A stretch of DNA of 64,000 nucleotides from an uncultured Syntrophobacter sp. GTDB lineage: Bacteria; Desulfobacterota; Binatia; UBA9968. Under the pieces are notes generated by a model that ran no database searches, was not told where the DNA came from, and was given only the letters and a program-made list of their open reading frames with translations. The position numbers and the translations under genes are program-made. Below are positions 329 through 19,503 of the stretch, piece after piece. How positions within the stretch are numbered: position 1 is the stretch's first letter; every line of letters starts with the position of its first letter. The stretch spans positions 6,065-70,064 of the forward strand of contig CAYZJE010000017.1 of NCBI GenBank assembly GCA_964478485.1, written 5' to 3'.

Positions 329-1447
329 TTACATGGCCAAAACCCGCATCCGGTCAGCGGGCAGTTCCACCCAGACATGCTGCCCCTTTTTTAATTCCGC
401 CACGTACGGACTTGTTTCCGCGCGGATATGAAATTCTCCGCTATCGATTTCGTATCCCACTCGGTTTCCCGTAAATACCGCGCTCTTCACCGTACCGGGG
501 AAGAGATTGTCACGCGCCTCGCCCTGTTCCGTATGGACCATTACGGCTTCCGGCCGGAACATCACAGAAACCGGCTGACCCGCCTTTATACCCGGCGGCA
601 GCGGGCAGCGAAGCGGTCCGAGGGAAGTCTCCACACGGCCGAAATCATTTGGCTCGTTCGACAAGGCGCGCCCTTGAATCACATTGGTCGTACCGACAAA
701 TCCCGCGACGAATAAATTCGCCGGCTCTTTGTAGATCTCCATCGGCGCGCCCAGTTGGACGACCTGCCCGCCGTGCATGACCGCGATGCGGTGCGATAAG
801 ACCAGGGCCTCCTCCTGATCGTGGGTGACGTACAACGCGGTGAGCTTCAATCTCTCGAAGAGATCGCGCAACTCATGGCGCATCTCTACCCGGAGCTTGG
901 CGTCCAGGTTGCTCAAAGGTTCGTCGAAAAGCAGCAGCTGCGGCTGAGCGACCAAAGCTCGCGCCACAGCCACGCGCTGCTGCTGCCCGCCGCTCAGCAG
1001 CGAGGCAGGACGTTTTCCTAACTCGCCCATCTGAACGAGTTGCAAGATTTCTTTGACCCGTTGGGCGGTTTCACTTTTTGTTAGCCGATGCCGGCCATGT
1101 GTGAGCGGGTAACCGACATTCTGCGCAACGCTCATATGAGGCCACACGGCATAGGATTGAAACACCATGCCGATTTCTCTCTCATGAACCGGAATCAGCA
1201 AACCTTTCTTGCTCGAGAAAACCGGCTTATCGTTGATCCAAATCTCTCCAGAGTCGGGAATCTCCAAACCCGCAATGCATCGGAGCGTCGTTGTTTTGCC
1301 GCAGCCGGAAGATCCCAACAGCGCGAAAAACTCGCCCGTTTTTACCTCGAAGGAGACATCGCGAACCGCGTCAACCTTGCCCTCTCCGGTAACGAAAGCC
1401 TTATTGAGTCCCTCTACGCGTAACATTGAAAACCCTTTTAGCGACAT
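329..1447 (-). CDS. ABC transporter ATP-binding subunit (PotA/FbpC/MalK-like with C-terminal TOBE-type domain)
   Basis: Walker A GSSGCGKTT, ABC signature LSGGQQQRVAVARAL, Walker B LLLFDEP; last gene of a permease-SBP-ATPase operon. Confidence 0.9.
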   Translation of the reverse strand: MSLKGFSMLRVEGLNKAFVTGEGKVDAVRDVSFEVKTGEFFALLGSSGCGKTTTLRCIAGLEIPDSGEIWINDKPVFSSKKGLLIPVHEREIGMVFQSYAVWPHMSVAQNVGYPLTHGRHRLTKSETAQRVKEILQLVQMGELGKRPASLLSGGQQQRVAVARALVAQPQLLLFDEPLSNLDAKLRVEMRHELRDLFERLKLTALYVTHDQEEALVLSHRIAVMHGGQVVQLGAPMEIYKEPANLFVAGFVGTTNVIQGRALSNEPNDFGRVETSLGPLRCPLPPGIKAGQPVSVMFRPEAVMVHTEQGEARDNLFPGTVKSAVFTGNRVGYEIDSGEFHIRAETSPYVAELKKGQHVWVELPADRMRVLAM

Positions 1448-1486
1448 TAAGTAGATTGCGGCGCAGGCTTTTCCAAATACTCGCTC

Positions 1487-2608
1487 CTAAGGCATGAGAG
1501 CCTGGAGAGCCTTTCTGACCTTGTCGCGCTGCCCGGCGATGATCTCTTCCGGAGTCCATTCCAATATTTTCGCCGTCGGCATGGCTTTGAGCGTTTTCGC
1601 AAGCTGGGAGCGTGGATCAGCAAAAGTGCCCTCGCCGTTTATCCGCTCAACCAGCGGCAACCCGTCCTCTAAAATAAAAGCAAGATAGAGCAACGCCAGG
1701 TTCGGGCTCTTGGCACCCTTCGGAATCGTAAGGCCGATCGAGCCAAGGATCATCACATCCTCGAATAATTTGGTCTGGATCGGATAGCCTTCCTTCCTTA
1801 AACCTTCAGTGCCGCCGATATTAGCCGCCGCCGCCGCCACTTCTCCCAGGGCCACAGCCATGCGCACGTCGCCGCTGCTGCGCTTGATCAGCGGCTTGTT
1901 GGCGAGAAGCATTTGCAGAACTTTCTTCTGCTTCTCTATATCCCAGAACCCTTGGATCGCCATATCCGCGAGCGGGCTGGCGGGTCCGATGGTATTGATA
2001 GCAAAGTTGCCTTTCCATTTCGGGTCGGCAAAACCCTTGCCTTCGGCAAATTCTGCGTAGGTCCGCGGCAATTGATCGGCGCTGGTTCTCTTCGTATTGT
2101 AGACAATGCCTGATGCCAGCGTTGTCACGTCCACCGAATAGGGACGTTTCCACGCCGCGACGTTTTTGAGAACTCCTTCGAGCCCCTTAAATTTCGGGCT
2201 AAAAATCTTGACCAGCGGAGTATCGATATCCTCGAAAAGCGCGAGCCTCTCAGGCCGTCCTGCGATATCGCTCGCGCCCGCATAAAGCAGGTCGGCGTCG
2301 ACACGCCCCACTTTAACTTCAGTCAGGAACCTAAGTATTGAATCGGGATTGGTGACAGGTGTCAGACTCACGCGCGGCGCGAATCCGAAGCGCTTCTTGA
2401 AAGCCGCCTCGAACTGCTCTCCCAGGCCTCGTTCGCCCGGCACTTCCCACCACAGGCGCAACTCTCCTTCTTTCTTGGCTCGGTCCAATATTTCCTCATA
2501 GGTCTTGCCGAATACCTGAGCCACTGCAGGCACCGCGGCGAGCAAAAGAACCCCGAAACAAAGCACACCTGCAACAAATTTTCTCCGATCATCGATCTTC
2601 ATGTTCAC
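1487..2608 (-). CDS. ABC transporter periplasmic substrate-binding protein (extracellular solute-binding family 1, iron(III)/polyamine/thiamine type)
   Basis: N-terminal signal peptide (hydrophobic run ending AVPAVAQ); size and position between ABC permease and ATPase. Confidence 0.75.
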   Translation of the reverse strand: MNMKIDDRRKFVAGVLCFGVLLLAAVPAVAQVFGKTYEEILDRAKKEGELRLWWEVPGERGLGEQFEAAFKKRFGFAPRVSLTPVTNPDSILRFLTEVKVGRVDADLLYAGASDIAGRPERLALFEDIDTPLVKIFSPKFKGLEGVLKNVAAWKRPYSVDVTTLASGIVYNTKRTSADQLPRTYAEFAEGKGFADPKWKGNFAINTIGPASPLADMAIQGFWDIEKQKKVLQMLLANKPLIKRSSGDVRMAVALGEVAAAAANIGGTEGLRKEGYPIQTKLFEDVMILGSIGLTIPKGAKSPNLALLYLAFILEDGLPLVERINGEGTFADPRSQLAKTLKAMPTAKILEWTPEEIIAGQRDKVRKALQALMP

Positions 2609-2644
2609 TCCTTTGTCGACTAAAGTATTTTTCGATAACTGACT

Positions 2645-4360
2645 CTAACCCACTTCCCAACCCGCCTTTGTTCTCTGTCGTTGATCCATGTAGCGCGCGG
2701 CGATCGTCACGAAAACAAATCCGCACATATAGACAGTGCCAAGCGCAGCCGTGCCTGAGATATCAGGAACATTCCACAAAACCCACATCGCCGAAGGCAA
2801 TACCATATTCCGACCTGTCATTAGAAAGATCGCGAAAGTAAAATCTCTCAGCGTAGCGGAAAAGGCCCATAGCCAGCCATTCACCACCGCGGGCAAAATC
2901 AGAGGCACGGTGACCGTGCGTAGAGTTCGAGCCGTAGTCGCGCCGGTGACGTGCGCCGCTTCCTCCAACTCCTTGTGCAGTTGCAGCAGCGCCGCGCTCA
3001 GCACCCGGGTAGTAAAAGGCAAATGGGCGATAATATGCGCGATGATCAAAACCCAGATGCTGCCGTGGATCGGCGTCATGACATAGATCAGGAAGAGCGC
3101 GAGCGCCAGGACGACGTTGGGAACCCCCATGGGCGTTATCGCGAAAACTTCTACCCATCGCATCTTCCGCTTTACCGATAACCAACTGGCGCAAAACGCG
3201 AGAAAGACCGCGAGCGTCGGCGCGATCACCATGAGCGTCAATGTATTCGCCGCGCTTTGCTGCACCAGCGGATTGGCCAGCGTGCGGAAATAGCTTTGCA
3301 GGCTTACCTGGCTCAACGCTTCGAAAGAAGGCGCTTGGTAAACTTTCACCAGGCTCGCCCAAACCAAGATCAGCATCGGCATGGCGTAGCAGGCAATAAC
3401 AATCACCACAAACGAAAACGCGATGTATTTCCAACTGCCTAACTTGAGCTGGCGCGGCCTGAAGGATTTCCCGGTGACGACGCTGAATTGATCTTGCTGG
3501 CGGGTTAGCCAGAAATAGACTCCCATCAGCGACAGCGCGAGCAGCAGCAAAACGACGCCGAAGGCCGCCGCCAGACCGTACAAAGGAATGCCGTCTTCCG
3601 CCTTGGTTAATAAATAGATGTGCACGCTGAGCACGCGGATTCCGCCGGGCACACCGATCGCAAGCGCGGTTTCCATCACCTGAACCAATACCATTCCGAA
3701 GTAGATCACAGCGGATAAGAGACCGGGCAATAAAAGCGGCAGCGTCACTTTGCGCAGCACAGTGAACGCTTTACTGCCCGACGTTTGTGCCGCTTCTTCA
3801 AATTCGGGATTCATCTGTCGAAACAGCGGGCTCAGCATTAAAAAAGCGTTGTTGCTGAGCCCAATGCCGGTGACAAATATCATTCCGGTCATTGTGTAAA
3901 TATTGAGAGGCCCACTTGCCCCTTCCAGGCCGAAACCTTGGCGCAGCAAATGATTTATCCATCCGAGTCCCGGCGACAAAAGCAGCACCCAGCCGAATGC
4001 TTTCAACATCGTCGGCACCGCGAGTGATACAAGCATCGCTGTGTATATCGCGGAACGAAACGGTATATCAGTCCGCTCTACCAAAAAAGCTATGATCGCG
4101 CCCAAGATAAGCGACAAGAAAAGTGCACCGGCACCGTAAATGACGGTGTTCGCCAATACTTTAGCCATCCTTGGATTAGAAAAAATCGTTGCAAAATTTT
4201 CGAGCGATATACCTGGATCGAGGGGAAGGGCGGAAGGGGGACGTAGACTAGTAATGAATAATACGACGAGCGGAGCTCCAAGCAGAAGAACGACTACAGC
4301 TGCAATGACGATTGTCAGCAGCCGGCCTTGGCCGCTAAATCTGGCCGGACTATCCACCAA
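2645..4360 (-). CDS. ABC transporter permease, fused two-domain type (FbpB/ThiP-like, 571 aa, about 12 TM helices)
   Basis: two repeats of the polytopic MetI-like permease fold, highly hydrophobic; first gene of the operon. Confidence 0.85.
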   Translation of the reverse strand: MVDSPARFSGQGRLLTIVIAAVVVLLLGAPLVVLFITSLRPPSALPLDPGISLENFATIFSNPRMAKVLANTVIYGAGALFLSLILGAIIAFLVERTDIPFRSAIYTAMLVSLAVPTMLKAFGWVLLLSPGLGWINHLLRQGFGLEGASGPLNIYTMTGMIFVTGIGLSNNAFLMLSPLFRQMNPEFEEAAQTSGSKAFTVLRKVTLPLLLPGLLSAVIYFGMVLVQVMETALAIGVPGGIRVLSVHIYLLTKAEDGIPLYGLAAAFGVVLLLLALSLMGVYFWLTRQQDQFSVVTGKSFRPRQLKLGSWKYIAFSFVVIVIACYAMPMLILVWASLVKVYQAPSFEALSQVSLQSYFRTLANPLVQQSAANTLTLMVIAPTLAVFLAFCASWLSVKRKMRWVEVFAITPMGVPNVVLALALFLIYVMTPIHGSIWVLIIAHIIAHLPFTTRVLSAALLQLHKELEEAAHVTGATTARTLRTVTVPLILPAVVNGWLWAFSATLRDFTFAIFLMTGRNMVLPSAMWVLWNVPDISGTAALGTVYMCGFVFVTIAARYMDQRQRTKAGWEVG

Positions 4361-5180: not shown

Positions 5181-6140
5181 ATGACTAATATCCGCCTTTC
5201 GTTATCCTGCGGCGACTACGACCGGACACGGCCGCTTATTGACGGCACTGTTCCTACTCCGGGTTTAGATCTAACGATCATACCCCTTCCGTCCGCCGAG
5301 CGTCACGCCCGATTCGTTCGCCACTTGGAATTCGACGTCTGCGAGCTTCAGATCGCGCAGTACCTAGGTTTAAAAAGCCGAGGAGTACCGATCACTGCGA
5401 TTCCCGTGTTTCCTCATCGCCGATTCAATCATAGCTGCGTCATGATACGCATGGACTCCAATATCGCGCGGCCGGAGGATCTGCGCGGCCGCCGCGTTGG
5501 CGTACATGGTCATTTCAATCCGATCGCGCTCTGGATTCGTGGTCTGCTGCAACATGAGTTCGACTTGCCGCCGCGCGAGATCCATTGGGTCGCGGACGGG
5601 TCCGAGGATATGCCGGACTGGGCTCCACCGCCGTGGCTCCGCTTTGAGCGCGCACCTGCCGGTCGAAATATGCAAGATTTGCTGAAGACGGGCGAATTGG
5701 ACGCTCAAATCCTTTCGGATAGTGGGGCTGACGCTTCTACCATCAACAAAGTCGTGCGTCGGCTCTGGCCCAACTACCGCGAAGTCGAGGCCGAGTACTT
5801 TCGCCGCACCGGTATTTTTCCGATTCGCCATCTTGTCGTCGTCAAAGACGAAGTGCTCCAGCATAATCCCGCCGTAGCGACATATCTCGTAAACGCTTTC
5901 GACGCCGCCAAGCAACAAGCTTATCGATATTGGGCTGACCACCGTCGCTCCTCTCTGGCCTGGTTCGGCGCCGAACAGGAAGAGGAGCGCGCCCTGCTCG
6001 GTATCGATCCCTGGCCCTACTCGATCGAGAAGAACCAAGTCGTCCTTGAAACGCTGCTGGATTATGCCTTTGAGCAAGGGCTTACCGAGCGCCGCCTAGA
6101 CATCAAGGAGATATTTGCGCCGAGCACACGGAACAGTTAA
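5181..6140 (+). CDS. PhtD/Pht5-like protein (4,5-dihydroxyphthalate decarboxylase family, cytoplasmic PBP-fold)
   Basis: N-terminal LSLSCGDYDRTRPL motif recalled from the 4,5-dihydroxyphthalate decarboxylase family; no signal peptide; paralog of 43492-44487. Confidence 0.55.
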   Translation: MTNIRLSLSCGDYDRTRPLIDGTVPTPGLDLTIIPLPSAERHARFVRHLEFDVCELQIAQYLGLKSRGVPITAIPVFPHRRFNHSCVMIRMDSNIARPEDLRGRRVGVHGHFNPIALWIRGLLQHEFDLPPREIHWVADGSEDMPDWAPPPWLRFERAPAGRNMQDLLKTGELDAQILSDSGADASTINKVVRRLWPNYREVEAEYFRRTGIFPIRHLVVVKDEVLQHNPAVATYLVNAFDAAKQQAYRYWADHRRSSLAWFGAEQEEERALLGIDPWPYSIEKNQVVLETLLDYAFEQGLTERRLDIKEIFAPSTRNS

Positions 6141-6241: not shown

Positions 6242-6493
6242 ATGAGCCTTTACCAAGTCGATAAGCTTCTATTCGCTTTGTTCAATGATTTGGAACTGCA
6301 ACAAAAATACCAAGAGGACCCCAGTGAAGTTCTCAAACGCTATGACTTGCAGGACTTCGAGCTGAAGGCGCTGCGAGACGTCAATGCCGGTGAACTTTAC
6401 CGGATGGGCGTGCACAGCTTTCTGCTCTGGCAGTTTTCGCGGCTGATGGATCTCAAACCAGCGATCTATTTCAAGCAAGTACGAGGAGAATAG
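6242..6493 (+). CDS. LigA-like small subunit of a LigAB-type extradiol ring-cleavage dioxygenase (unusually short, 83 aa)
   Basis: pattern LN-F-x-SL...ER..F..D..AY.....L......AV..RD...M...G.N.YFL.KL resembles the protocatechuate 4,5-dioxygenase alpha subunit; 4-nt gap to the LigB-like gene. Confidence 0.55.
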   Translation: MSLYQVDKLLFALFNDLELQQKYQEDPSEVLKRYDLQDFELKALRDVNAGELYRMGVHSFLLWQFSRLMDLKPAIYFKQVRGE

Positions 6494-6496
6494 TTT

Positions 6497-7333
6497 ATGG
6501 GTAAAGTCATCCTGGGGCTCGCCGCGCCGCACAATCCCAATATCACGTCGCACCCGGACAAGATGTCGCCCGAGGTTCAGAGCAAGCTCGACTCTGCGTT
6601 CGGTCATTTGAAAGGGCGCTTGTCGGAAGCTTCTCCCGATTGTCTGTTAATATTGACCAGCGATCACGTGACCAACTTTTTCTACAACAACGCGCCGATG
6701 TTTTGTCTCGGCGTCTCCGACACCTGCACCGGCCCCGCGCCCAAGGAATTGTCGGAGCTGAACATTCCTCGCGCCACTTTGAAAGTGGACACAACGATGG
6801 CTAAAGGACTGCTCAACTACGGCATCGAAAGCGGCATAGACTTCAGTTACTCCAGGGAAATGATCCTGGACCATGCCTTCATGGTACCGTTGAGTCTGCT
6901 GACACCGCACATGGACCTACCGATCGTGCCGTTGCATATCAATGGCATGCTGCCGCCCCGACCCACTGCCGCGCGATGTTTTCGCCTCGGCGAGCAAATC
7001 GGCGGATACATCCGCAATCACTACGAAGGTAACGTCGCGGTGCTGGCGAGCGGCAGTTTTTCCGGAGATATCGGCGGACCCAAGATGGGCTCCATCGACA
7101 CCGCGCTGGACTTGGAGTTCCTCGATTTAGTCAAAGACGCCAAGGGTCAAGAGATGGTCAACAAAGCCACTACGGAGACTCTCGAACGGGCGGGAGTGGC
7201 CAATGAAATCCTGATTTGGATCACGCTTCAGGGCGTGCTCGGCAATCTGAAACCTTCTTTCACGGACTATATTTGCGGCAAAGATTGGTCCACCGCGGCA
7301 ACTCTGGCGACATGGCAGCCAACCTTGCGCTAG
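6497..7333 (+). CDS. Extradiol ring-cleavage dioxygenase class III catalytic subunit (LigB family)
   Basis: matches LigB blocks: LLILTSDHVTNF (cf. VILVYNDHASAF), DHAFMVPLSLL (cf. DHGCTVPLSMIF), VAVLASGSFSG (cf. VHVWGTGGMSH). Confidence 0.8.
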   Translation: MGKVILGLAAPHNPNITSHPDKMSPEVQSKLDSAFGHLKGRLSEASPDCLLILTSDHVTNFFYNNAPMFCLGVSDTCTGPAPKELSELNIPRATLKVDTTMAKGLLNYGIESGIDFSYSREMILDHAFMVPLSLLTPHMDLPIVPLHINGMLPPRPTAARCFRLGEQIGGYIRNHYEGNVAVLASGSFSGDIGGPKMGSIDTALDLEFLDLVKDAKGQEMVNKATTETLERAGVANEILIWITLQGVLGNLKPSFTDYICGKDWSTAATLATWQPTLR

Positions 7334-7419
7334 CCGTAGATCTAAGAAACACACAAAAAAGTTGATCGACGTTCCCGACAAACCGCCGGACCTAGTTGGC
7401 GCGATCCGGAATCCGCAAG

Positions 7420-8457
7420 TCAAAAATCGTATTTTGCCACGACCAATTTAACCCTCTCGTACGCAGGCTGAAGCTCCGGCCGCTTGAGAAGGTCTTGAAA
7501 AGCTTTTTTGACAGCGGAATCGCGGAGCAAAGATTCCACGTCGATGGGGGCCTTTAGATCTCCTATCGCCGTCATTCCCTGAATGATCCCTTTCAAACTA
7601 TCAGCGGTAACTCCTCCATCGATGGGCAGCGCCCAACCATCGACTTTTTCCAAACTGGTCACAATGAATAATTCGCGTTCTTCGTCATTATGGCTTTCGC
7701 TGCGAAGGCGGCTTTCGAGCTTGCGAAGATAATCGAAATTCGCCGTATCACGCATAAACCAGAATGCGCGAATCATGCCCCGAAAATACGCTCGAAGCTC
7801 ATCCGCACGGGACTCGATGGCCCTTTTCGTGGCCACAGTCACTTTTCCCGGTCTGCGCGGAAATACCACACGAGGGTCCATTAAAACAGGAAACCCTTCG
7901 CTCTCGATCTGCTTGGAAAAAGGCGGAAATGACGGCATGGCATCGACCACCCTATTGCGGAGCATGTCGACATGCTTGGGATCGTTGCCGTAACCAAACA
8001 CCGGGTCAAACACCCATGTGACTTCCTTTTCCGGATCGATCCCGGCTTGCAACAACAGAGTGGCCATGAAGCCGTAAACAAGTCCTTCCTTTTCACGAAT
8101 ACCCAGTCGGCGCCCTTTCAATTGGCGGATATCAGAAATGCCTTTTTGGCTGTACCATTTTAGATCCGGATCGTAGCGCCATCCGCCCACGATATAGACA
8201 TCGGCGCCTAAAGATCTCTGATAAATCGCCGCGGAAATATCGACCGCCGTTGCGATGTCCACGCCGTGCTCGACCATTGCCGGGCCGAGTCCTTGTTTCT
8301 CGATCGTCGCCGGGATCAAGCCGCGGCCATCGTAGTCGAATTTCTCGAGTCCTTCCTCTTTGAAGTAGCCCTGTTCCTTGGCCACGTACACAGCAATTTG
8401 TTGTCCCACGTGGTAATTACTATTGGCAATCAGCAAGGGCTGGCCGGCGGTACTCAT
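7420..8457 (-). CDS. NMT1/SsuA-like PBP-fold protein, cytoplasmic (no signal peptide)
   Basis: family resemblance to NMT1/THI5/SsuA periplasmic-binding fold; 55-60 % identical paralog at 10789-11838 (shared LLIAN-NYHVG, GADVYIVGGWRY, DP-VFPRRPGKVTVA). Confidence 0.55.
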   Translation of the reverse strand: MSTAGQPLLIANSNYHVGQQIAVYVAKEQGYFKEEGLEKFDYDGRGLIPATIEKQGLGPAMVEHGVDIATAVDISAAIYQRSLGADVYIVGGWRYDPDLKWYSQKGISDIRQLKGRRLGIREKEGLVYGFMATLLLQAGIDPEKEVTWVFDPVFGYGNDPKHVDMLRNRVVDAMPSFPPFSKQIESEGFPVLMDPRVVFPRRPGKVTVATKRAIESRADELRAYFRGMIRAFWFMRDTANFDYLRKLESRLRSESHNDEERELFIVTSLEKVDGWALPIDGGVTADSLKGIIQGMTAIGDLKAPIDVESLLRDSAVKKAFQDLLKRPELQPAYERVKLVVAKYDF

Positions 8458-8569
8458 GCTGGGTTCTCCTCATTGAGAAAAAATTGTTCGGCCCTTACAG
8501 GAGCCGTGCTGCCTGTGAGTCCGTGCGCTACGTTGACTGATTTCGGAATTTCTGACCGGACGCCTAGAA

Positions 8570-9535
8570 CTAGCTACCGGTTTCCTGTTCGACGCGCTTG
8601 AGATAGCTGTTATCGACAAACTCCGTTAGTTTTAAGCCGCGCAGAGTTGGATTCGCCTCGGTCAAATAAGAGAGGAAAATACGCAGGTCTTCGACATTGG
8701 TATACGGATAGACCGGAATCGGCTCCACGTTTCGACGATACAGATGATCCATGAAGGAAGGATCCGTGCTGGGGAGATAGCGATTGTATATCCGTAGGAC
8801 TTCTTGGCGGTTTTTCGGGTCCTTAGCCCACCGTCGGCCTTGTACCAACGCCCTCATCGTACGTAGGACCACTTCCTTATTTTGGTCGCGAAAACTTCGT
8901 GTCGTGAGATAAGAATTCCCCATGACTTTGATGCCCATTTCCATCGCGTCGGCCAAAGCATAATAAGGAATCTTTAATTGCTCGAAGCGGTCGGTGGCCG
9001 TGACCACACCCGAGACAAGCCCTGATTTGAATGCCGCTACTCTCTGATTTCCCCCACCCCCAACTTGTACGAGTTCGACATCGCCGGTCTTCAAGCCGAC
9101 CTTTTCAAGTATTTGGAGCGAAATATAGTAGCTCGTGCCGCCGACCCGGTCGACGACGATCTTTTTGCCTTTTAGATCTTTGGCCGTTTGGACACCTGGT
9201 TGGGTGATCAGTTTGTATTCGATCGGCTCTGCGGTGGCCAAAGCGACCAGGTCAGAACCTCTGGCAGCTGCCAGCGCCGCAGAGTCGACGCCGCCAAGAT
9301 AGAACTGAAGCTCGCCGGCGATGAGAGCTTGTGTCCCTTGGACGCCCGGCGTGATGATAACTTCCGCGGCGAGACCGTTTTTCCTGAAAAAACCCATATC
9401 GTTGGTAACCCAAAGCGCAATGCGGCTGCTGGATATAGATGAATAGCCCATGCGAATCCGGTCAAGTTTCTCAGCAGAAACCGCCTGCAGTGCGCTGCCG
9501 AAGATAACAAGTGCAACAATTATTAAGGACAACAT
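8570..9535 (-). CDS. NMT1/SsuA/TauA-like ABC substrate-binding protein, periplasmic (start taken at internal Met MLSLIIVALVIFGSA, GGGAG RBS upstream)
   Basis: signal peptide; Gly-rich loop VQVGGGGN and overall NMT1-like pattern; paralogs at 9794, 12033 and 36224. Confidence 0.7.
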   Translation of the reverse strand: MLSLIIVALVIFGSALQAVSAEKLDRIRMGYSSISSSRIALWVTNDMGFFRKNGLAAEVIITPGVQGTQALIAGELQFYLGGVDSAALAAARGSDLVALATAEPIEYKLITQPGVQTAKDLKGKKIVVDRVGGTSYYISLQILEKVGLKTGDVELVQVGGGGNQRVAAFKSGLVSGVVTATDRFEQLKIPYYALADAMEMGIKVMGNSYLTTRSFRDQNKEVVLRTMRALVQGRRWAKDPKNRQEVLRIYNRYLPSTDPSFMDHLYRRNVEPIPVYPYTNVEDLRIFLSYLTEANPTLRGLKLTEFVDNSYLKRVEQETGS

Positions 9536-9793
9536 ACACACTCCCGTTGTTTTTTTGCTCGCATTGTCCCTTGTATCCGCGCTTGCCCGCCGGGTCAAGC
9601 AATCGCGTGTTCGGTACATGTTTCTGGTTTTTTGTTAACTGAAAAATAGAAACTGAATATTCACGAATCAGTTTGACCGCGGTTGGGCTAAGCGATAAAG
9701 AGACATTGTAAACTATTCACGCCGATATCATTGGCAGTCATAGTCGCTCGATCGGAAATGAACCGAAGTAATTGGCAACCCAGGGGGGGCTCC

Positions 9794-10792
9794 ATGGAGT
9801 TTAGGCCCAAAGCAAAGCGCTCGCGCGTAACATTGCTCATAGTTTTGACGCTGGCATTTGGCTTAAGCGACAACCGCGTCTCCTTCGCTTTGGACGAAGC
9901 GAAAATTCATGTGGCTGGCACGCCGAACATCACCAGCTTCGTCTACCACGTCGGCAAAGAAAAAGGCTTCTACAGAGAAGAAGGTATCGAGCTTCAACCG
10001 ATCATGGCGGGAATGCTCCAGGGGATTCAGGGGCTGATCGCCGGAAGCTTCGACTACAGCCAGATGCTCGGGGCAGGCGGTGGCGCCATCATGAGAGGTG
10101 CGCCGCTCAAGATCATCATGGCCTTCGATACTCGTCCGTCGTGGTTCGTCCTCGGGACGAAAAATATGAAAAGCATCCAGGATCTCAAAGGCAAGCAATT
10201 AGCGGTTTCCAGTTTTGGCGCCGCGCTGGATCAGATGACCCGTGAGCTGCTACCCCGATTCGGCATGGAACCCATGCGGGACGTCATTCTGCGCGCCATC
10301 GAGCCGCCTCCCAACAGACTCGCTGCTCTCTTGAGCGGCGCGGTAGACGCGGCGGTCTTGACTCACCCTGAAACGATCGTTGCGCGCAGGCAGGGCTTCA
10401 AGGAATTGCTTTTCTTCGGCGACCATATCGAGTTTGTCTCGGCAGGCGTGGTGGCGACGGAGAGAAATATTTCTCAGAAGCCGGATTTCGTCCGGCGTTT
10501 CATACGCGGCGCCCTCAAGACGTTTTACTGGCTCAAGGCCAACGAAAAGGAAGTCGTCGCCAGGCTGGCCAAAGCCACGAAGTCTTCCGAGGCCGATGGC
10601 CTGGAGCTCTACAGGACCGGGCTCAAGCTTTTTTCACAAGACGGCTCCATACCGCGAAGACTCCAGGAGACAATGATCTCGCTGCAGAGAAAAGTCTTGA
10701 ACGTAGAAAAAGAAGTCCCGCCGGAGAGCGTCTATGACTTCAGTTTTGTCCACACTGGAAACAAGGAACTAGGAAAAGGAGAATCGTCATGA
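9794..10792 (+). CDS. NMT1/SsuA-like ABC substrate-binding protein, periplasmic (start taken at MEFRPKAK)
   Basis: signal peptide RVTLLIVLTLAFGLS; about 50 % identical to 12033-13016; divergent from 8570-9535. Confidence 0.7.
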   Translation: MEFRPKAKRSRVTLLIVLTLAFGLSDNRVSFALDEAKIHVAGTPNITSFVYHVGKEKGFYREEGIELQPIMAGMLQGIQGLIAGSFDYSQMLGAGGGAIMRGAPLKIIMAFDTRPSWFVLGTKNMKSIQDLKGKQLAVSSFGAALDQMTRELLPRFGMEPMRDVILRAIEPPPNRLAALLSGAVDAAVLTHPETIVARRQGFKELLFFGDHIEFVSAGVVATERNISQKPDFVRRFIRGALKTFYWLKANEKEVVARLAKATKSSEADGLELYRTGLKLFSQDGSIPRRLQETMISLQRKVLNVEKEVPPESVYDFSFVHTGNKELGKGESS

Positions 10793-11838
10793 GCACTTTG
10801 GATCAACCGCTTCTCATCGCTAACGTCAACTACCACGTCGGCCATTGGGTCGCCATTTACGTCGCCGAAGAACAGAGCTTTTTCAAACAGGAAGGTCTCA
10901 CCCGCTATAAATACGAGCGCGGCGGGCTCCTGCCGGGTCCATCGGAAAGCCAGACTCTCGGACTCGCAATAAAAGAACACGGCGTGGACATCGCCACCGC
11001 GGTAGACACGGAATCGGCCATCAGTCAGCGGGTTCAAGGCGCCGATGTCTACATCGTTGGCGGCTGGCGCTACACGCCATTTCTCAAATGGTATGGCTCC
11101 AAACATATCACCGACATGAGCAAACTCCGCGGCGGCAAGATCGGCGTGCGGGAGAATTCAGCCGACGGCGGCGGCCTCGTCGAATTTTTCATCGAAGAGG
11201 CTCTAAAAGAAGCCGGCGTCAACCCGGAGACCGAGGTAGAAATGGTCCAAGACCCGGTGTTCGGCTACCGCAACAACCCGGCCCACATCGATATGCTTCG
11301 CTCCGGAAAAGTAAACGCGATCACGTCGTCGCCGCCCTTCTCAGATGAATTGGAGAAAGAAGGTTACCCGGTCATCCTCGACCCCAACAAGGTCTTTCCA
11401 CGGCGTCCAGGCAAGGTCACCGTGGCGCCGCGAAGAACTATTGAACAGCGCGGCGATGAGCTGAAAGCTTATTGCCGGGCCATCACTCGCACATTCTGGT
11501 TTATGCGCGACGTGAAGAACTTCGAATATCTCCACGACCTCGAAGCAAGATTAAGAAAGCTCACTCATAATGACGACGAGCAGCGCCTCTTCATTGCATC
11601 AGCGCCGGACAGAGTTGACAGTTGGGCGCTTCCTATGGACGGAGGCATAGAGCGACACGCGCTCGAACGAATTATTCAAGAGATGGTCAAGAGAGGCAGG
11701 TTGGAACGTCCCATTCCTGTCGGGGACGTATTCAAAGACGATGCCGTGCGCGATGCTTACCGTGACGTCAGCACCCGGGCAGAGCTCAAGCCCGTCTTTA
11801 ATACGGCCATGGCGACGTTCGAGAAATATGGATTTTGA
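10789..11838 (+). CDS. NMT1/SsuA-like PBP-fold protein, cytoplasmic; paralog of 7420-8457
   Basis: ATGA overlap with the upstream SBP gene; no signal peptide; strong identity to 7420-8457. Confidence 0.55.
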   Translation: MSTLDQPLLIANVNYHVGHWVAIYVAEEQSFFKQEGLTRYKYERGGLLPGPSESQTLGLAIKEHGVDIATAVDTESAISQRVQGADVYIVGGWRYTPFLKWYGSKHITDMSKLRGGKIGVRENSADGGGLVEFFIEEALKEAGVNPETEVEMVQDPVFGYRNNPAHIDMLRSGKVNAITSSPPFSDELEKEGYPVILDPNKVFPRRPGKVTVAPRRTIEQRGDELKAYCRAITRTFWFMRDVKNFEYLHDLEARLRKLTHNDDEQRLFIASAPDRVDSWALPMDGGIERHALERIIQEMVKRGRLERPIPVGDVFKDDAVRDAYRDVSTRAELKPVFNTAMATFEKYGF

Positions 11839-12032: not shown

Positions 12033-13016
12033 TCATTTTCCTTTACTCCTCTCACTCAGAAGTGACTGCAAAAAACCGAAATTAAAGACTCGCTGCGACG
12101 GGACGTCTTTATCAACTTTCACTTCCTTCTTGTGAAAGTTGATGATCCGCTCTTGGGCGGCCGGCGTCAACGTGCCGTCCTCGGTAAATGCTTTCACGGA
12201 TGCGCGATAAACGCTGAGAGCGTCGTCCTCCGGCACTTTGCTGAACCGGGCGAACATTTTTACCGCCTCTTTCTCATTTCTTTTGAACCACTGAAAGGTT
12301 TGCAGCGTGCCGGCTAAAAACCGCCGAACGAAATCCGGCCGCTCCGCCAGCATCTTCTCCGTAACGGCGACACCGCCGCTCGAATATTCGAAATGGTCTC
12401 CGTAAAAGGCCAACTCGTTGAAGCCCATCTTATTGGCGCGGGTTCGCTCCGGCGCGTTGACCACCGTCGCGGCGACTCCCCCGCTGCCTAAGGCGGCCAG
12501 CCGCCCTTCCAACGGTATGACGTGAATCTTCACATCGCGCTGCGGGTCGATGCCGTTTTTATTGAGGAGCTCACGGGTCATGTGGCCGCTTGCGCCGCCA
12601 ATAGTTTGAATCGCGACGGTTTTTCCCTTGACGTCTTGAAGAGTCTTTATTTCCGGTGCGCCGAAGAGCCAAAATTGCGGCTTGCTATCGAAGACCATCA
12701 CAATTTTAAGGCCGATCCCTTGCATTATGGCGGTCGTGCTCGCACCGAGTATCTGGCTGAAGTCGAAACTCCCGCCGATCAAGCCCTGCACTCCGACTTG
12801 GGGTTGCGCCATGATAGTCAGCGTATCGAGACCATTGTCTCTATAGAATCCCTTGTCGACCCCCGCGACAAAGATAAACGCGTTGGGGCTGCCGATTCCG
12901 GTTCGGTGCACCTTTGCGGTATCCGCAGGGACCGCGACCTGGACTGAAACGGCAGAGCCTGAAACGAGTGTAAGACAGAAGGCAAGAAATATTCTGTTTG
13001 TGCTCACTGGAAACAT
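12033..13016 (-). CDS. NMT1/SsuA-like ABC substrate-binding protein, periplasmic
   Basis: signal peptide FLAFCLTLVSGSAVSV; paralog of 9794-10792; downstream of the Rieske oxygenase gene in the same orientation. Confidence 0.7.
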   Translation of the reverse strand: MFPVSTNRIFLAFCLTLVSGSAVSVQVAVPADTAKVHRTGIGSPNAFIFVAGVDKGFYRDNGLDTLTIMAQPQVGVQGLIGGSFDFSQILGASTTAIMQGIGLKIVMVFDSKPQFWLFGAPEIKTLQDVKGKTVAIQTIGGASGHMTRELLNKNGIDPQRDVKIHVIPLEGRLAALGSGGVAATVVNAPERTRANKMGFNELAFYGDHFEYSSGGVAVTEKMLAERPDFVRRFLAGTLQTFQWFKRNEKEAVKMFARFSKVPEDDALSVYRASVKAFTEDGTLTPAAQERIINFHKKEVKVDKDVPSQRVFNFGFLQSLLSERSKGK

Positions 13017-13045: not shown

Positions 13046-14203
13046 TTACGCGGTCTCGAAGTCCGCACGCGATAGCGTCTTCCACCGCTTGGTTGGCCGG
13101 GCCTCGGAAAGCGCCCGTAGTTCCCGTTCCCAAATCTTTCGGAACAGGATCACCACCGCGTCGTTACGCCCCAGGTGAAACTGGCTTTGGTCGGCCATCG
13201 CTCCCTGGCCGACTTGCGCCACATAGTCTTCGATGCGCGTCAGTTCGTAGTTGTCCGCGCCGGTCATATGCTTGATCTTGGCCTTACCGCGCAGAACGCT
13301 TTCGCCCAACTCGACATGGCTCGGGCCGGTCGGCTCGCTTTCCGAACGGTGCTCAAGAAATTTACTTCTAGCCTTTTCACTTTCCAGATGCACGATATCG
13401 ACGCCGAGCCCCAAGCAGCGGTCGTTCTCGATCGGCACGCGCCACAGGAATCGATCCACCGATCCGCCGCCGAGGCCATGGTCAGTTAATCCTTTGATCC
13501 GCAACGGATGCCGCAAGTGATTCATGTTCGGCATGAGAATGTAACGGGCTTCGGTTTTCCCCGCAGCCAACTTGCGCGTCAACTTGATGCCGACATCGTT
13601 TTCCTCCGCCAACAACTCTTCTGGCACGGCTACGTCGATACCGATTCTGCGCCGCGACTCACGATGCGTGAACGGCACGTGAACCGGGTCGCCCAGGTTG
13701 TCAAGCCGATTGAAATAGTTACACGGCCATTCCTCGCTCAGCAGCACGTCGACGATGCCGCCTTGGTCGAGATCCGAGTAGCGCGGCAACGGCGGCGCGG
13801 CGCCCTCGCCGAGAAACGCAAAGATAAGCCCCAGATATTCTTCGGTCGGATGGCTGCGGATCGTGATCTTCGACTTGAACGACGCGTCTTCGCCGGGCTG
13901 CTCGACGCATTGCCCGGACGATTCATATTTCCAGCCGTGATAGAAACAGCGAATACAATCGCCCTCCACCCATCCTGCCGAGAGCTGCGTCCCGCGGTGT
14001 GCACAGCGAAACGCGACCACGTGCGGGATTCCGGTTTCACCGCGGTAAAGAGTAAAATCCTCACTCATGATCCGCAGCGGTACAGCTTCTCCCGCCGGCA
14101 AGTCTTTGGCCCGGTAAACCGGTTGCCAAAACAACCGGAGGTAGCGTCCGGCGAGGCTGCCGGGTTCGGTGCGAAAAATGTCTATTCCATTCTCGGTGCC
14201 CAT
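13046..14203 (-). CDS. Rieske [2Fe-2S] non-heme iron aromatic ring-hydroxylating oxygenase, alpha-only type (phthalate dioxygenase/VanA-like)
   Basis: Rieske motif CAHRG...(17)...CFYHGW; 385 aa as in PDO/VanA-type oxygenases; mononuclear-iron region with conserved His/Asp. Confidence 0.8.
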   Translation of the reverse strand: MGTENGIDIFRTEPGSLAGRYLRLFWQPVYRAKDLPAGEAVPLRIMSEDFTLYRGETGIPHVVAFRCAHRGTQLSAGWVEGDCIRCFYHGWKYESSGQCVEQPGEDASFKSKITIRSHPTEEYLGLIFAFLGEGAAPPLPRYSDLDQGGIVDVLLSEEWPCNYFNRLDNLGDPVHVPFTHRESRRRIGIDVAVPEELLAEENDVGIKLTRKLAAGKTEARYILMPNMNHLRHPLRIKGLTDHGLGGGSVDRFLWRVPIENDRCLGLGVDIVHLESEKARSKFLEHRSESEPTGPSHVELGESVLRGKAKIKHMTGADNYELTRIEDYVAQVGQGAMADQSQFHLGRNDAVVILFRKIWERELRALSEARPTKRWKTLSRADFETA

Positions 14204-14229: not shown

Positions 14230-15063
14230 TCACTTCGTGTAACCGATGATTTTCGCCAAAAGCTGTTGGGTCAGAGCGGTGCCCGGGAGAGAAACTCCAA
14301 AATCATTGGCGCACTCCAGCGCCACGGACAGAGTTTTGTACAAACCTTCCCATTGATGGCGCAGCGCCTCCGGTGATTGCGACACGCGCTCGATGCGCTC
14401 AAACCAATGGTCTGCCATGTAACTTTGCCCGGCGCTATGGTGAATTACCTGCTGTACCGACGGCAAATCCAAACCGGCTTTCTGCGCGATCGAAACGCCC
14501 TCGAACATCGCCAGCATGTTGATGCAGACGAGAATTTGATTGATGATCTTCGCTGCCGTCCCGGCGCCGATCTCGCCCAGATGCAAGATCTCGGCCCCAG
14601 AGGTAGCGAAAACTTCGCGGCACTTCGCTACAGCATCCCTCGAACCCCCGACCATGTAACAGAGTCTCTTTTCGTAGGCGCCAGTTTCACCACCGCTGAT
14701 CGGCGCATCGACGATGATGATGTTTTTTGCCGCAGCTTTATCGGCAATCGCTTTCAGCGTTTTCGGCAAGACGGTGCTGTGAATCGCAATCATCGTCTCT
14801 GACTTGGCTCCGCTAAAAACACCACCGTCGCGAAAGAAGACCGATTCGACTTGCGCATCGTCAAGCACGGCGATTTCGACGAGTTCGGCGTATTCAGCGA
14901 CTTCTTTGGCCGTGTGAGCAACCTTTGCGCCCAATTGGGCGAGATCCCGGACCGGCTCCTCGCGAACATCGTACACTGTCAAATCAAAACCGGCTTTGGC
15001 GATATTTATCGCCATCGGCTTTCCCATCGTACCGAGACCGATAAATCCAACTTTGTGAATCAT
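14230..15063 (-). CDS. NAD(P)-dependent 3-hydroxyisobutyrate dehydrogenase family oxidoreductase (HIBADH/2-hydroxy-3-oxopropionate reductase-like)
   Basis: N-terminal Rossmann motif KVGFIGLGTMGKPMA; conserved family blocks in the second half (GEIGAGTAAKIINQIL; DL). Confidence 0.85.
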   Translation of the reverse strand: MIHKVGFIGLGTMGKPMAINIAKAGFDLTVYDVREEPVRDLAQLGAKVAHTAKEVAEYAELVEIAVLDDAQVESVFFRDGGVFSGAKSETMIAIHSTVLPKTLKAIADKAAAKNIIIVDAPISGGETGAYEKRLCYMVGGSRDAVAKCREVFATSGAEILHLGEIGAGTAAKIINQILVCINMLAMFEGVSIAQKAGLDLPSVQQVIHHSAGQSYMADHWFERIERVSQSPEALRHQWEGLYKTLSVALECANDFGVSLPGTALTQQLLAKIIGYTK

Positions 15064-15447
15064 AACTTGCTTGACCTATTCTATATGTAAATTAAAGCGA
15101 CTACAGAGTTCATGGCAATCGGTTTTGTGAGCACCTGCGTTTTTACGTCCGATACGCCACCAACGTTTGCCGTCCAGCGATAAAATTCGACGCGAATAGC
15201 ATCGGGCATCGGGCAAATTAGCCGAAGAATGTCTTGTCTGCCTTCCAACGAGCTACAATAGAAACGTGTGGAAACCGGGAAAAGGCAGGCGTACCCTTTC
15301 GTAACCGGTGAAATGAAAGGCTGTCTGTTGAAGCAGGCCGGGAAAGGATGCGCTAGTGAAAGAGAAACACATTGGGGGGGATGAATCAAAGGGAATTTTC
15401 TACGAGGGGCCGGAGGGAATTGCGCGGGAGAGAAACTTATTGAGTAG

Positions 15448-15717
15448 CTAATCGGTAACAATCAGGCACGGCAACTGAGATTCTCCGCCAAAGTCGAGCA
15501 GGTCTTTTGCCGTTTCTAAATCGACGACAGCGTAGTTGTCCTCCGGGCCGTCCACGACTACACAACACGCCGGATCCTTGCTGTTGAGTCCGCGATTGAC
15601 TTCGCGGCAGGCGGCAATGGCTTCCTCTTCAGTGTCGAAAAATTCACAATAATCCATCATGGGCTCAGTATACTTTTTCATGACATAGGTAAACCTTTGA
15701 CACCAGTCTCTAAGCAA
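15448..15717 (-). CDS. small hypothetical protein (Cys-rich, acidic)
   Basis: ORF only; plausible start at MKKYTEPMM; no recognisable family. Confidence 0.3.
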   Translation of the reverse strand: MLRDWCQRFTYVMKKYTEPMMDYCEFFDTEEEAIAACREVNRGLNSKDPACCVVVDGPEDNYAVVDLETAKDLLDFGGESQLPCLIVTD

Positions 15718-16237
15718 GAACCACGACCTGCCCCGGTCCCTCGTCCGGCTTTACACGATTTCAAAGGAGCGTAGCGATGCAACGTTTTGAACGGCTTGAA
15801 CGGTTAGTGTCTTACTGGTCTCGTGGATGCAATCAACTGATCGTCGCACTTCAGCAATTTTATCTGGCCATTATTGCTCGGTGATCTGAGTGTGTAAAAA
15901 AACACTAGAAAAAAACGGGAATCGAAAGATTGTAGTCATTGTTATGTCAGACCCCAAATCGGCGGTCACCCAGATACTGGGCGTTTCGATGCGACCGTGG
16001 TCGGCCAGGTCGTGCCTGACGAAGTGGAATTGTCTTCGATCCAGAAAGATCAGGGCCATCTCTTCCAGCAGCGTGGCTTGATGGGCTTTGACGGTGCAGT
16101 GGTAGTGGGCCTGGGGTTTGACAACCCAGTACTTGGCCAGTTTGGGTTGGGTCTGCAGGGCGTCGGCGCTATGGAAACATTTCGGGCAAAAAGAGACGCC
16201 AGAGGAGAAAGCGGCGCTGCAAGTTATTGAAAAAAAC

Positions 16238-16313
<76 letters not shown>

Positions 16314-18299: not shown

Positions 18300-18425
18300 G
18301 CAACCCGCGAGGCGGTTCCGCAGGATTTCGACTTTCACGCTTCCCTACGCCGGCGCGACCCGGATCAGGTTCAAAGGGTTACCTGTTTTTCAGGCTCTCA
18401 GTCTGACGTGGGCAGACACCCCTAG
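18300..18425 (-). promoter_or_regulatory. TPP (THI-element) riboswitch in the 5' leader of thiS-thiG-thiE
   Basis: minus-strand sequence GGGGTGTCTGCCCACGTCAGACTGAGAGCCTGAAAAACAGGTAACCCTTTGAACCTGATCCGGGTCGCGCCGGCGTAGGGAAGCG carries the conserved CUGAGA, ACCUGAUC, GG...GCCGGCGUAGGGAA blocks. Confidence 0.8.
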
Positions 18426-18541
18426 CAATGGAGCATGCTTAACAAAGCGCTGGTGGCAAGTCAAATTGGCGGATCGAATCGATTAAACCGTTCAAGTCGA
18501 AGGTCATTTGGTATGGCGAAGAAGATGAATCCAAGCGCGGT

Positions 18542-19375
18542 TTAAAGTTCCAACGCCACGCTGGCGTAACCGACGACTTTGCGCATCGGCGTGACATCCC
18601 CCGAGTGACAGTGTTTGAGCAGCGTGGCGCGCTTAACACCGAGCGCCTTGGCGGCAAAGAGCGTGACGGCGGTCGGGATCACGCCGCACATGGTGATGTT
18701 TTTCGCTTCCGTAATCTGTAAAAGTCCTTGCGGATTCATGGCCAACACTTGGTCGAGCGCGAGCCGATCGAGCGCGTCAGTTTCTTTGGGCGAAAGATAG
18801 TGGCTCAAATCGCTGCTGGCGAGGATTACCGTCGTTGCGCTAGTTCCACAGTAAGCCGCGATCGCCTCTCCGAGTTCAGCACATTCATCTAACGAGATAT
18901 GCGCGAGCGAAATTGGCGTGAAAGTGAACTGGCCGAGCATCCGCTGCAGAAATGGCAGCTGTACTTCGATGCTGTGCTCTTCAGCGTGGGCGGAGGGCTC
19001 GCGCTTAATGAATTTGACCTGCGATTCGAGATACTCATTCAGTTTTTCATCGACAGTGACTTCACCCAAAGGCGTGCGCCAGGTTTTCCATGGGCTCAGC
19101 GCTGCTCGATGGCCGCGTGCCCAGTGGTTAACGCCGATTAAAACCACCCGCTCAATCGTTTGATCGAGGCGCGCGTAAAGATGGGCGGCGCAAGGGCCAG
19201 AGTAAATCGGCCCGGCGTGGGGCACTATACCGGCGATTAAATCGGTCGAAGGCGTGAAAATGCCACGCGGTCCGAGCGGGCTCTTGCCAAAACAGTCGTC
19301 GAGAAGCGTATTAAGTTCGTCCGCAGTAGCCGGATAGAAGGATCCAGCTACCGCAGTCGGTCGGGCGGAGGTCAT
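18542..19375 (-). CDS. MEMO1-family protein (AmmeMemoRadiSam system protein B-like), start taken at MTSARP
   Basis: AGSFYP motif near the N-terminus and HAGPIYSG block typical of the Memo family. Confidence 0.7.
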   Translation of the reverse strand: MTSARPTAVAGSFYPATADELNTLLDDCFGKSPLGPRGIFTPSTDLIAGIVPHAGPIYSGPCAAHLYARLDQTIERVVLIGVNHWARGHRAALSPWKTWRTPLGEVTVDEKLNEYLESQVKFIKREPSAHAEEHSIEVQLPFLQRMLGQFTFTPISLAHISLDECAELGEAIAAYCGTSATTVILASSDLSHYLSPKETDALDRLALDQVLAMNPQGLLQITEAKNITMCGVIPTAVTLFAAKALGVKRATLLKHCHSGDVTPMRKVVGYASVALEL

Positions 19376-19391
19376 GGGATCACTCGTTTGT

Positions 19392-19503
19392 TGTTGACCA
19401 CGCTGATTCCAGCGTGGACCATTAAATGGGGTTTCCAAAGGGGGCGAGCATCCCCTTTGGTTAAGGGCGGGGTCAATACCCCGCCCGCGAAGTGCCTTCG
19501 TTT
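19392..19503 (-). repeat. copy A of a roughly 115-bp three-hairpin intergenic repeat (forward form on the minus strand)
   Basis: minus-strand reading ...GGCACTTCGCGGGCGGGGTATTGACCCCGCCC..CCAAAGGGGATGCTCGCCCCCTTTGGAAACCCCATTTAATGGTCCACGCTGGAATCAGCGTGGTCAACAA, near-identical to copies at 46956, 50265, 54753 and 59622. Confidence 0.85.

Follow-up and report, generated by a model that had tools for sequence, protein, structure and literature searches.

The SsuA/NMT1 type of periplasmic binding protein (PBP) fold is familiar from the secreted solute-binding proteins of NitT/TauT-type ATP-binding cassette (ABC) transporters, such as SsuA and TauA. Aromatic acids are known ligands of the NitT/TauT binding-protein family, and OphFGH and PatABCD are phthalate ABC systems. 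The same scaffold is already known to work in the cytoplasm. Thi5, the hydroxymethylpyrimidine phosphate (HMP-P) synthase, and ThiY, a periplasmic pyrimidine-binding protein, form a pair of cytoplasmic enzyme and secreted binder that share the NMT1 fold. DszB, the 2'-hydroxybiphenyl-2-sulfinate desulfinase (2DE2/2DE3), is a cytoplasmic protein of SsuA-type fold that strips an anionic group from an aromatic ring and possesses a catalytic cysteine. PhtD/Pht5 (9JP7), the 4,5-dihydroxyphthalate decarboxylase, is a leaderless PBP-fold member of the NMT1 superfamily encoded beside Rieske and ring-cleavage genes. Finally, the C-terminal regulatory domains of NrtC and CmpC (9UAK, 9UAI, 8WM7, 9U9Z), which are fused to a NitT/TauT ABC ATPase, are cytoplasmic homologues of the periplasmic binding protein of their own system. 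Here, we describe a four-gene region (7420-11838) within a 64 kb stretch of a contig from an uncultured Binatia bacterium (the window), in which two leaderless proteins of this fold, A and D, are encoded beside two predicted secreted ones, B and C, at the centre of an approximately 15 kb aromatic-acid (phthalate-type) catabolic island. A and D belong to a distinct, small, very conserved and uncharacterised offshoot of the SsuA/NMT1 fold. A literature search returned no paper that deals with this family, the 9JP7 structure or binding proteins of Binatia, and in the literature found there is no description of the clade, of its motifs or of the way in which it is coupled to dioxygenases and secreted paralogues.

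The four open reading frames (ORFs) have the positions and strands given in a first-pass annotation of this DNA, with B preceding A and C preceding D, each pair on its own strand, around a divergent spacer of 258 bp (9536-9793). Gene A (7420-8457, minus strand) encodes a leaderless NMT1/SsuA-fold protein of 345 amino acids that belongs to clade A of its family, carries the motif YHVGQ and matches Pfam NMT1_2 at 32.8 bits. Gene B (8570-9535, minus strand) encodes a putatively secreted NMT1-type solute-binding protein of 321 amino acids with a subfamily of its own (Pfam NMT1, 57.8 bits). On the other side of the spacer, gene C (9794-10792, plus strand) encodes a second such protein, of 332 amino acids (Pfam NMT1, 65.1 bits), and gene D (10789-11838, plus strand) a leaderless NMT1/SsuA-fold protein of 349 amino acids, clade D, with the motif YHVGH; all four proteins match NMT1/NMT1_2. 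The longest ORF of gene B extends to 9619, and the ATG at 9535 is the conserved start, with GGGAG upstream. Gene A has its own ribosome-binding site (GAGGAG) 8 nucleotides (nt) upstream of its ATG, and the start of D overlaps the stop of C by 4 nt (ATGA). A third putatively secreted NMT1-type binding protein, the closest paralogue of C and a member of its subfamily, is encoded by gene E (12033-13016, minus strand). In all, a phmmer search of all six-frame ORFs returned eight NMT1-superfamily proteins in the window, A to H, the same number as in the first-pass annotation; gene H lies at 36224-37297.

In a crude test of hydrophobicity and cleavage sites, the N-termini of B, C, E and H and that of the SBP_bac_8 protein of a nearby ABC importer resembled signal peptides, and those of A, D, F and G did not. 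The N-terminus of B (MLSLIIVALVIFGSALQAVSA/EK) is signal-peptide-like, and C has a signal peptide with a K/R-rich n-region. We looked for earlier start codons that would give A and D a leader, and none is possible: an in-frame stop precedes the ATG by 4 codons in A and by 17 codons in D, and neither interval offers another start codon. Both ORFs thus have their greatest possible length, which leaves no room for a signal peptide. Members of the leaderless family share the conserved N-terminus MSTxDQP, and the close homologues of A and D that were listed are 345-349 amino acids long or fragments thereof, a few mis-called longer ORFs excepted. Additionally, the first β-strand in the AlphaFold model of A begins at residue 8, and the N-terminus has no hydrophobic region. 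The prediction that A and D are leaderless and cytoplasmic, and that B, C and E are exported, is supported by these observations, and the cytoplasmic/periplasmic split proposed at first pass agrees with the crude test on B and C versus A and D. That all four are instead conventional ABC-transporter binding proteins, with the starts of A and D mis-called, would suit the public annotation of the homologues as 'ABC transporter substrate-binding protein' and the Pfam NMT1_2 match, which is above the gathering score; the upstream stops, the N-terminus kept across the family and the failure to find a cognate permease or ATPase in the window or in related loci make it scarcely credible. A and D have neither the signal peptide nor the transporter linkage that this label entails, and public annotation mislabels their family. 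Export of A and D by hitch-hiking with B and C through the twin-arginine (Tat) pathway was also considered and rejected, the leaders of B and C being Sec-type without a twin-arginine motif.

The AlphaFold2 model of A (predicted local distance difference test score 87.5) has a PBP fold of the SsuA/NMT1 type. Its best Foldseek matches are the Bordetella exported protein 3qsl, ThiY, Thi5, TauA and SsuA; further matches are the CmpC/NrtC cytoplasmic regulatory domain, PqqT, DszB and NrtA and, lower down, PhtD 9JP7. In sequence searches of the PDB neither A nor the family profile had a significant match, and among NCBIfam models the A/D family has only sub-threshold matches to SsuA_fam. Among 1.8 billion representatives the family comprises 476 clusters (50% identity) at E <= 1e-3 and 39 at E <= 1e-30; of the distant clusters, 10 were looked up, and the sources of all 10 are exclusively metagenomes or metagenome-assembled genomes. 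Matches among GTDB species genomes are titled almost entirely Candidatus Binatia or 'delta proteobacterium', with a few Chloroflexota.

Shared by the family are the motifs YHxxH, GGWR, FWFMRD and a C-terminal KYGF, and approximately 100 residues are invariant across paralogues of 55-60% identity, both termini included. In relatives down to about 27% identity, Y15, H16, H19, W93, R94, R230, R252 and R326 are kept together with a C-terminal aromatic-Gly-aromatic motif. The YHxxH motif stands at the start of helix 1 in the model, and in clade A a Q replaces its second His. At cleft positions, the loops of A and D contain many R, E, K, H and Y residues (NSNYHVGH, GGWRY, GxREKEGL, VFGYxNxPxH, FPRRPGK), whereas those of B, C and E contain many S, G and T residues (GTPNITS, MAFDTRP, AVSSFGAA). 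A YHVG string common to C and D was tried as a shared binding motif and rejected, since its positions in the two proteins, counted from the GFFxEEG anchor, differ by 8 residues. In most of the relatives compared, no other island protein is as conserved as D (84-98%; L002 has no clade-D gene), which exceeds both LigB and the Rieske protein. Orthologues of gene A are 79-92% identical, and homologues of gene C are restricted to the same lineage.

The first-pass annotation had likened A and D to PhtD-type decarboxylases and had counted two of these elsewhere in the window. The two are present: F (5181-6140, plus strand) matches the solved 4,5-dihydroxyphthalate decarboxylase 9JP7 with E 2.6e-52 (phmmer), and G (43492-44487) is 42% identical to F. 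A and D share with PhtD the leaderless NMT1-superfamily fold and the neighbourhood of Rieske and ring-cleavage genes, a true PhtD-type protein (F) lies in the same island, and in some relatives a PhtD gene stands directly upstream of the leaderless gene. The resemblance does not extend to sequence. A and D have no sequence-level match to 9JP7; alignment of the A-family and PhtD-family profiles with hhalign reached only 75% probability (E 2.6e-5) with an unreliable N-terminal register; PhtD ranks low in Foldseek, with a template modelling score of about 0.5; and the PhtD motif GDYDRTRP stands where A and D have NSNYHVGH. Judged by sequence, A and D are not PhtD-type. DszB, which is cytoplasmic and of SsuA-type fold as A and D are predicted to be, is matched by Foldseek at E ~2e-9; its sequence similarity to A and D is undetectable, and the A/D family has no invariant Cys.

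Thi5 and ThiY are among the top structural matches (E ~1e-12) at an identity of only 14-19%, with Thi5 itself at 14%, and the Pfam NMT1 match of A and D is partial and weak (25-32 bits). The thiamine genes of the window (thiS, thiG, thiE and a riboswitch for thiamine pyrophosphate, TPP) form a separate, standard operon that is unrelated to the nearby NMT1/THI5-like genes; the riboswitch lies at 18325-18433 (minus strand, 73 bits) upstream of thiG-thiE, where a thiS ORF is annotated in a close relative. With the NrtC/CmpC domain, A and D have in common that they are cytoplasmic paralogues encoded beside a secreted one, yet they are only 22-23% identical to C, have no significant match to B (best E 0.28) and differ in their cleft loops; unlike that domain they are free-standing, with no such transporter nearby. 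B, C and E themselves resemble SsuA/TauA-type binding proteins in fold, signal peptide and weak matches to SsuA_fam (62-76 bits, far below the curated cut-off of 163.5). They differ from SsuA/TauA systems in that a cognate permease or ATPase was not found in the window or related loci, and they appear to be ordinary NMT1/SsuA-type binding proteins, seemingly orphans.

The gene context of the family was read in approximately 50 related loci, and a neighbour-joining tree of the leaderless proteins contains clades A, D, X1, X2, X3 and 'o' and one outlier. Clade A genes follow a B gene, and clade D genes follow a C gene with a 4-nt overlap; five loci have D without any NMT1 partner (L008, L026, L029, L032, L041). 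In clade X1 the order is PhtD, leaderless gene, binding protein, LigA and LigB, and in clade X2 an MFS_3 gene is followed by a binding protein, the leaderless gene, another binding protein and a split TPP enzyme. Clade X3 consists of the leaderless gene followed by a binding protein; two of its five loci (L020, L025) have an ABC ATPase gene pair downstream on the opposite strand, and gene sizes in L020 (sizes only, no Pfam check) suggest a peptide-type ABC system. In clade 'o', found in Chloroflexota, Thermodesulfobacteriota and one metagenome-assembled genome of an uncultured delta-proteobacterium, the leaderless gene is followed by LigA and LigB with no binding-protein gene between, and a binding-protein gene comes after LigB in two of the three loci. 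Two members are more distant. The gene for one, 40% identical, overlaps the NMT1 binding-protein gene that comes after it, and its surroundings are unrelated. The other, 45% identical to A, lies directly upstream of a gene for a glyoxalase/vicinal oxygen chelate (VOC)-fold protein, read as an extradiol dioxygenase on a weak Pfam match, and of a VanA-like Rieske gene; the nearby binding proteins at this locus are of the TctC type, not NMT1. Drawn from the contexts of the clades and of these two distant members, the family is robustly associated with a secreted NMT1 paralogue and with extradiol dioxygenases of two unrelated folds.

The X2 operon (L044 7666-13302; also L009, L010, L011, L015, L021) encodes a TPP enzyme that scores just below the cut-offs for sulfopyruvate decarboxylase alpha/beta and phosphonopyruvate decarboxylase, and genes for a PhnD-like binding protein and for a 1034-amino-acid protein with no Pfam match lie near it; the operon may serve organosulfonate or phosphonate metabolism.

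The absence of adjacent ABC genes, on which the first-pass annotation relied, stands for the cognate kind. No NitT/TauT permease or ATPase was found anywhere in the 64 kb window, and none was found outside the gene pairs when the approximately 50 related loci were read. It does not stand for ABC genes in general: an importer of a different family with its own binding protein lies 3 kb off (329-4360, minus strand), comprising an ATPase with a TOBE domain (329-1447), an SBP_bac_8 binding protein and a fused 571-amino-acid permease, and it recurs with the island in L002, L024 and L032. Other kinds of ABC genes in the loci are the fused double permease with a TOBE-type ATPase, which we presume to resemble ferric-iron (FbpABC-type) importers, and Liv-like and Dpp-like sets recognised by gene size only. 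The proposal that the four genes are not conventional transporter operons and are tied to the aromatic-acid genes nearby is supported. In L032 (10001-15716), a clade D gene is followed on the same strand by genes for a 386-amino-acid putative binding protein, a 614-amino-acid fused permease and a TOBE-type ATPase, a transporter of the same ABC family as that at 329-4360; there the leaderless gene heads an uptake operon of a different family.

We tentatively favour, at somewhat less than even confidence, the view that A and D are cytoplasmic PBP-fold enzymes that feed ring cleavage; between the 'sensing or enzymatic' roles first suggested for them, we lean towards the enzymatic. Aromatic acids would be bound in the periplasm by B, C and E and handed either to a transporter encoded elsewhere or to the nearby ABC importer, which is of another family. 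A and D would then act in the cytoplasm in a lyase- or decarboxylase-like manner, by analogy with PhtD and DszB and possibly with the assistance of a metal held by the YHxxH pair, and would turn imported or oxygenated aromatic acids into a catecholic substrate for extradiol cleavage, or would process the dioxygenase product. This view is favoured by the R/E/K/H/Y-rich cleft loops, as against the S/G/T-rich loops of the partner binding proteins, by the place of D at the top of island conservation, by a fold with the cytoplasmic enzymes Thi5, DszB and PhtD as precedents, by the X1 and 'o' operons with LigAB, by the 45%-identical relative encoded beside a putative VOC-fold extradiol dioxygenase and a Rieske gene, and by the D loci that have no NMT1 partner.

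Several observations weigh against an enzymatic role. No catalytic residue, signature or cofactor site was identified in A or D, and the family has no characterised member. The conserved residues are predicted to line the cleft from the order of secondary-structure elements and the topology, not from distances. Clades X2 and X3 are found away from any dioxygenase, and gene A is dispensable in the nearest relative (L024), which lacks window positions 7335-8569, exactly this gene. A few distant relatives that carry the motif have a signal peptide or lipobox, so that YHxxH may be a ligand-binding rather than a catalytic feature. Finally, the pairing with a secreted paralogue is tight in both gene orders and down to 40% identity, which would also fit a two-compartment binding pair.

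This pairing, in which the leaderless gene is nearly always beside a secreted NMT1 paralogue with codons that overlap or almost abut, is also what would be expected if A and D were non-catalytic cytoplasmic binders, which might chaperone imported acid, serve as its sink or, as free-standing proteins, regulate in the manner of the NrtC/CmpC domain. The exported relatives with the motif and the failure to find a catalytic signature agree with such a role, as do the CmpC/NrtC regulatory domains, which Foldseek matches at E ~5e-11 and which are among the best, though insignificant, profile matches. We consider a binding role the main rival, somewhat less probable than an enzymatic one. Neither an ABC ATPase or permease of the matching family nor a DNA-binding domain is attached or adjacent to the leaderless genes in the window and the approximately 50 loci, the conservation of the family, termini included, is far above what is usual for binding proteins, and the family is found beside dioxygenases without an NMT1 partner. 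In addition, the cleft-loop chemistry is sharply unlike that of the partner binding proteins, and the leaderless protein and its partner would therefore not bind the same ligand alike. An arrangement in which the periplasmic protein captures a substrate, a carrier that is non-ABC or encoded elsewhere lets it through, and the cytoplasmic partner then traps or senses it seems to us improbable. The MFS_3 protein encoded at the head of the X2 operon could be such a carrier, and uptake or sensing of this kind would depend on a binding protein but have no dedicated membrane component of the ABC, tripartite ATP-independent periplasmic (TRAP) or tripartite tricarboxylate (TTT) type.

The position of YHxxH at the start of helix 1 raises the further question of whether A and D handle metal, for example by supplying or holding Fe(II) for LigAB through a helix-borne HxxH. 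The neighbours of the family are iron-dependent extradiol dioxygenases of two folds, the fold includes the metal- or cofactor-binding proteins 3un6 (which has zinc) and PqqT, and the ABC system with a TOBE-type ATPase and fused permease travels with the island. With a Q in place of the second His in clade A, no dioxygenase neighbour in X2 and X3, and three paralogues per island that would be hard to justify, we regard metal handling as quite improbable, and we know of no precedent for such an Fe(II) chaperone. 

The first-pass annotation described the locus as a mirror-image duplication of a two-gene module, palindromic around approximately 260 bp. The symmetry of gene order is real, but the description as duplicated modules is wrong: the DNA itself is not palindromic, B and C share only 27% identity, and the B-A pair differs in architecture from the C-D pair. 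BLASTP aligns A and D along their entire length at 54.4% identity, confirming close paralogy at a value just below the 55-60% first given, whereas C is closer to E (44%) than to B; only A and D are close paralogues, and by these comparisons B and C are members of different binding-protein subfamilies. A DNA repeat search found no palindrome around the divergent spacer, whose 258 bp do separate divergent genes. Its inverted matches, with arms of 31-39 nt and 71-77% complementarity, all fall within the coding regions of A and D, as does the blastn similarity of these genes in inverted orientation (approximately 69% over 150-240 nt). The inverted similarity is thus patchy, at 70-77%, and the non-coding parts have none. 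Between B and A lie 112 nt that include a terminator-like hairpin, and C and D overlap at ATGA. In the neighbour-joining tree A and D fall into separate deep clades, each with its own orthologues, which are 79-98% identical in other Binatia assemblies; on this tree the A/D split is old.

The mirror order is shared with some relatives and broken in others. It recurs in L003, L004 and two ERZ1305449 contigs, and elsewhere parts of it are missing: A in L024, L006, L014, L018 and L056, and C in L008, L026, L029 and L041, some of which keep D. A recent inverted duplication, in which a module for a binding protein and a cytoplasmic protein was copied to give a palindrome with one operator for both halves, could draw on this recurrent symmetry, on the identity of A and D and on inverted TTGACC-containing boxes in the B-C spacer. 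Given the relationship of C to E, the separate clades, the differing architectures, the losses just listed and the resemblance of the boxes to two divergent -35 elements, it is very improbable. What stands head to head here is a pair of bicistrons of different construction, B-spacer-A on one side and the overlapping C and D on the other, and the parts of this layout have been gained and lost independently among relatives.

The presence or absence of gene A is a clean polymorphism that affects one gene only. With the nearest relative, L024, protein identity is 95-99% and nucleotide identity across B-C-D is 98%, and the segment that L024 lacks is flanked in the window by CTAGC at 7331-7335 and 8570-8574. 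At the L024 junction (7780-7784) the stop codons of LigB and B overlap at this CTAGC microhomology. L003, L041 and L042 have an unbroken homologous stretch from B through the spacer to A, and the absence of A in L024 is therefore most simply explained by deletion. In the two ERZ1305449 contigs (96% identity in C), the module from PhtD to the dehydrogenase is reversed relative to thiS, thiG and thiE, and a phage-integrase fragment lies at the junction that matches 15064-16237 and the tRNA-Thr edge. The reversed module and the integrase fragment suggest a mobile or invertible genomic island; a search of the window for an att-like repeat of the tRNA-Thr found none.

The divergent spacer was compared by alignment of eight loci with the B|C arrangement, which yielded three conserved boxes: GGTCAAGCAATC (9593-9604), CAGTTTGACCG (9669-9679) and GCTAAGCGATAAAGA (9687-9701). 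The first two carry TTGACC in opposite orientations approximately 75 nt apart, and an A/T-rich hexamer lies 16-17 nt beyond each. These conserved inverted boxes resemble -35 elements, and we read them as two putative divergent -35/-10 promoters rather than as the shared operator motifs for which a search of this spacer had been suggested. A sigma-70 consensus scan did not call the conserved boxes. In the B-A spacer (8458-8569, minus strand), the consensus scan indicated a terminator-like hairpin at 8489-8506; overall, the sigma-70 and terminator scans did not exceed shuffled expectation. Rfam gave no match within the four-gene region or the divergent spacer.

The NMT1/SsuA-fold proteins of the island are of three kinds: the PhtD-type F, the putatively secreted B, C and E of two subfamilies, and the leaderless A and D. 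Between F and A lie genes for a LigA-like class III extradiol dioxygenase subunit (6242-6493, plus strand), an ORF whose orthologues carry PF07746, and for the LigB subunit (6497-7333, plus strand; Pfam LigB, 101 bits); the NCBIfam class III extradiol models match LigAB below their cut-offs. Beyond E are a Rieske oxygenase gene (13046-14203, minus strand) and a gene for an NAD_binding_2 dehydrogenase of the beta-hydroxyacid type (14230-15063, minus strand), both syntenic in L002, L003, L006, L014, L026 and L029, and a tRNA-Thr(CGT) gene (16238-16313, minus strand) marks the island edge.

Outside the island the window contains housekeeping genes. At 18542-19438 (minus strand) is a gene for AmmeMemoRadiSam system protein B (Memo-like, 280 bits), beside genes of the FAA-hydrolase family and Amidohydro_2; no radical-SAM partner was seen among the ORFs scanned. 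Downstream of a gene for a MoxR-type AAA ATPase, 47082-48473 (minus strand) encodes a 463-amino-acid protein that has membrane segments at its N-terminus and a long low-complexity tail rich in K, Q, G and E and that matches nothing in Pfam; this gene accounts for a strong AT-skew anomaly (-0.245) at 46-48 kb. An Rfam match to V_AS9, a Vibrio antisense RNA, at 41414-41515 (minus strand), antisense within ribBA, scores 50.6 against a gathering score of 50 and is probably due to chance.

The mirror-image layout itself represents ordinary operon shuffling, and the point of note at this locus is the leaderless YHxxH/GGWR family. If its members are enzymes, they would constitute a fourth independent catalytic recruitment of this binding-protein scaffold, after Thi5, DszB and PhtD, and would fill a step in the aromatic-acid degradation of an abundant soil lineage. 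Should they instead be binders, they would correspond to the NrtC/CmpC regulatory domain in free-standing form. In both cases, tallies of 'orphan binding proteins' in such genomes are inflated by proteins predicted to stay in the cytoplasm.

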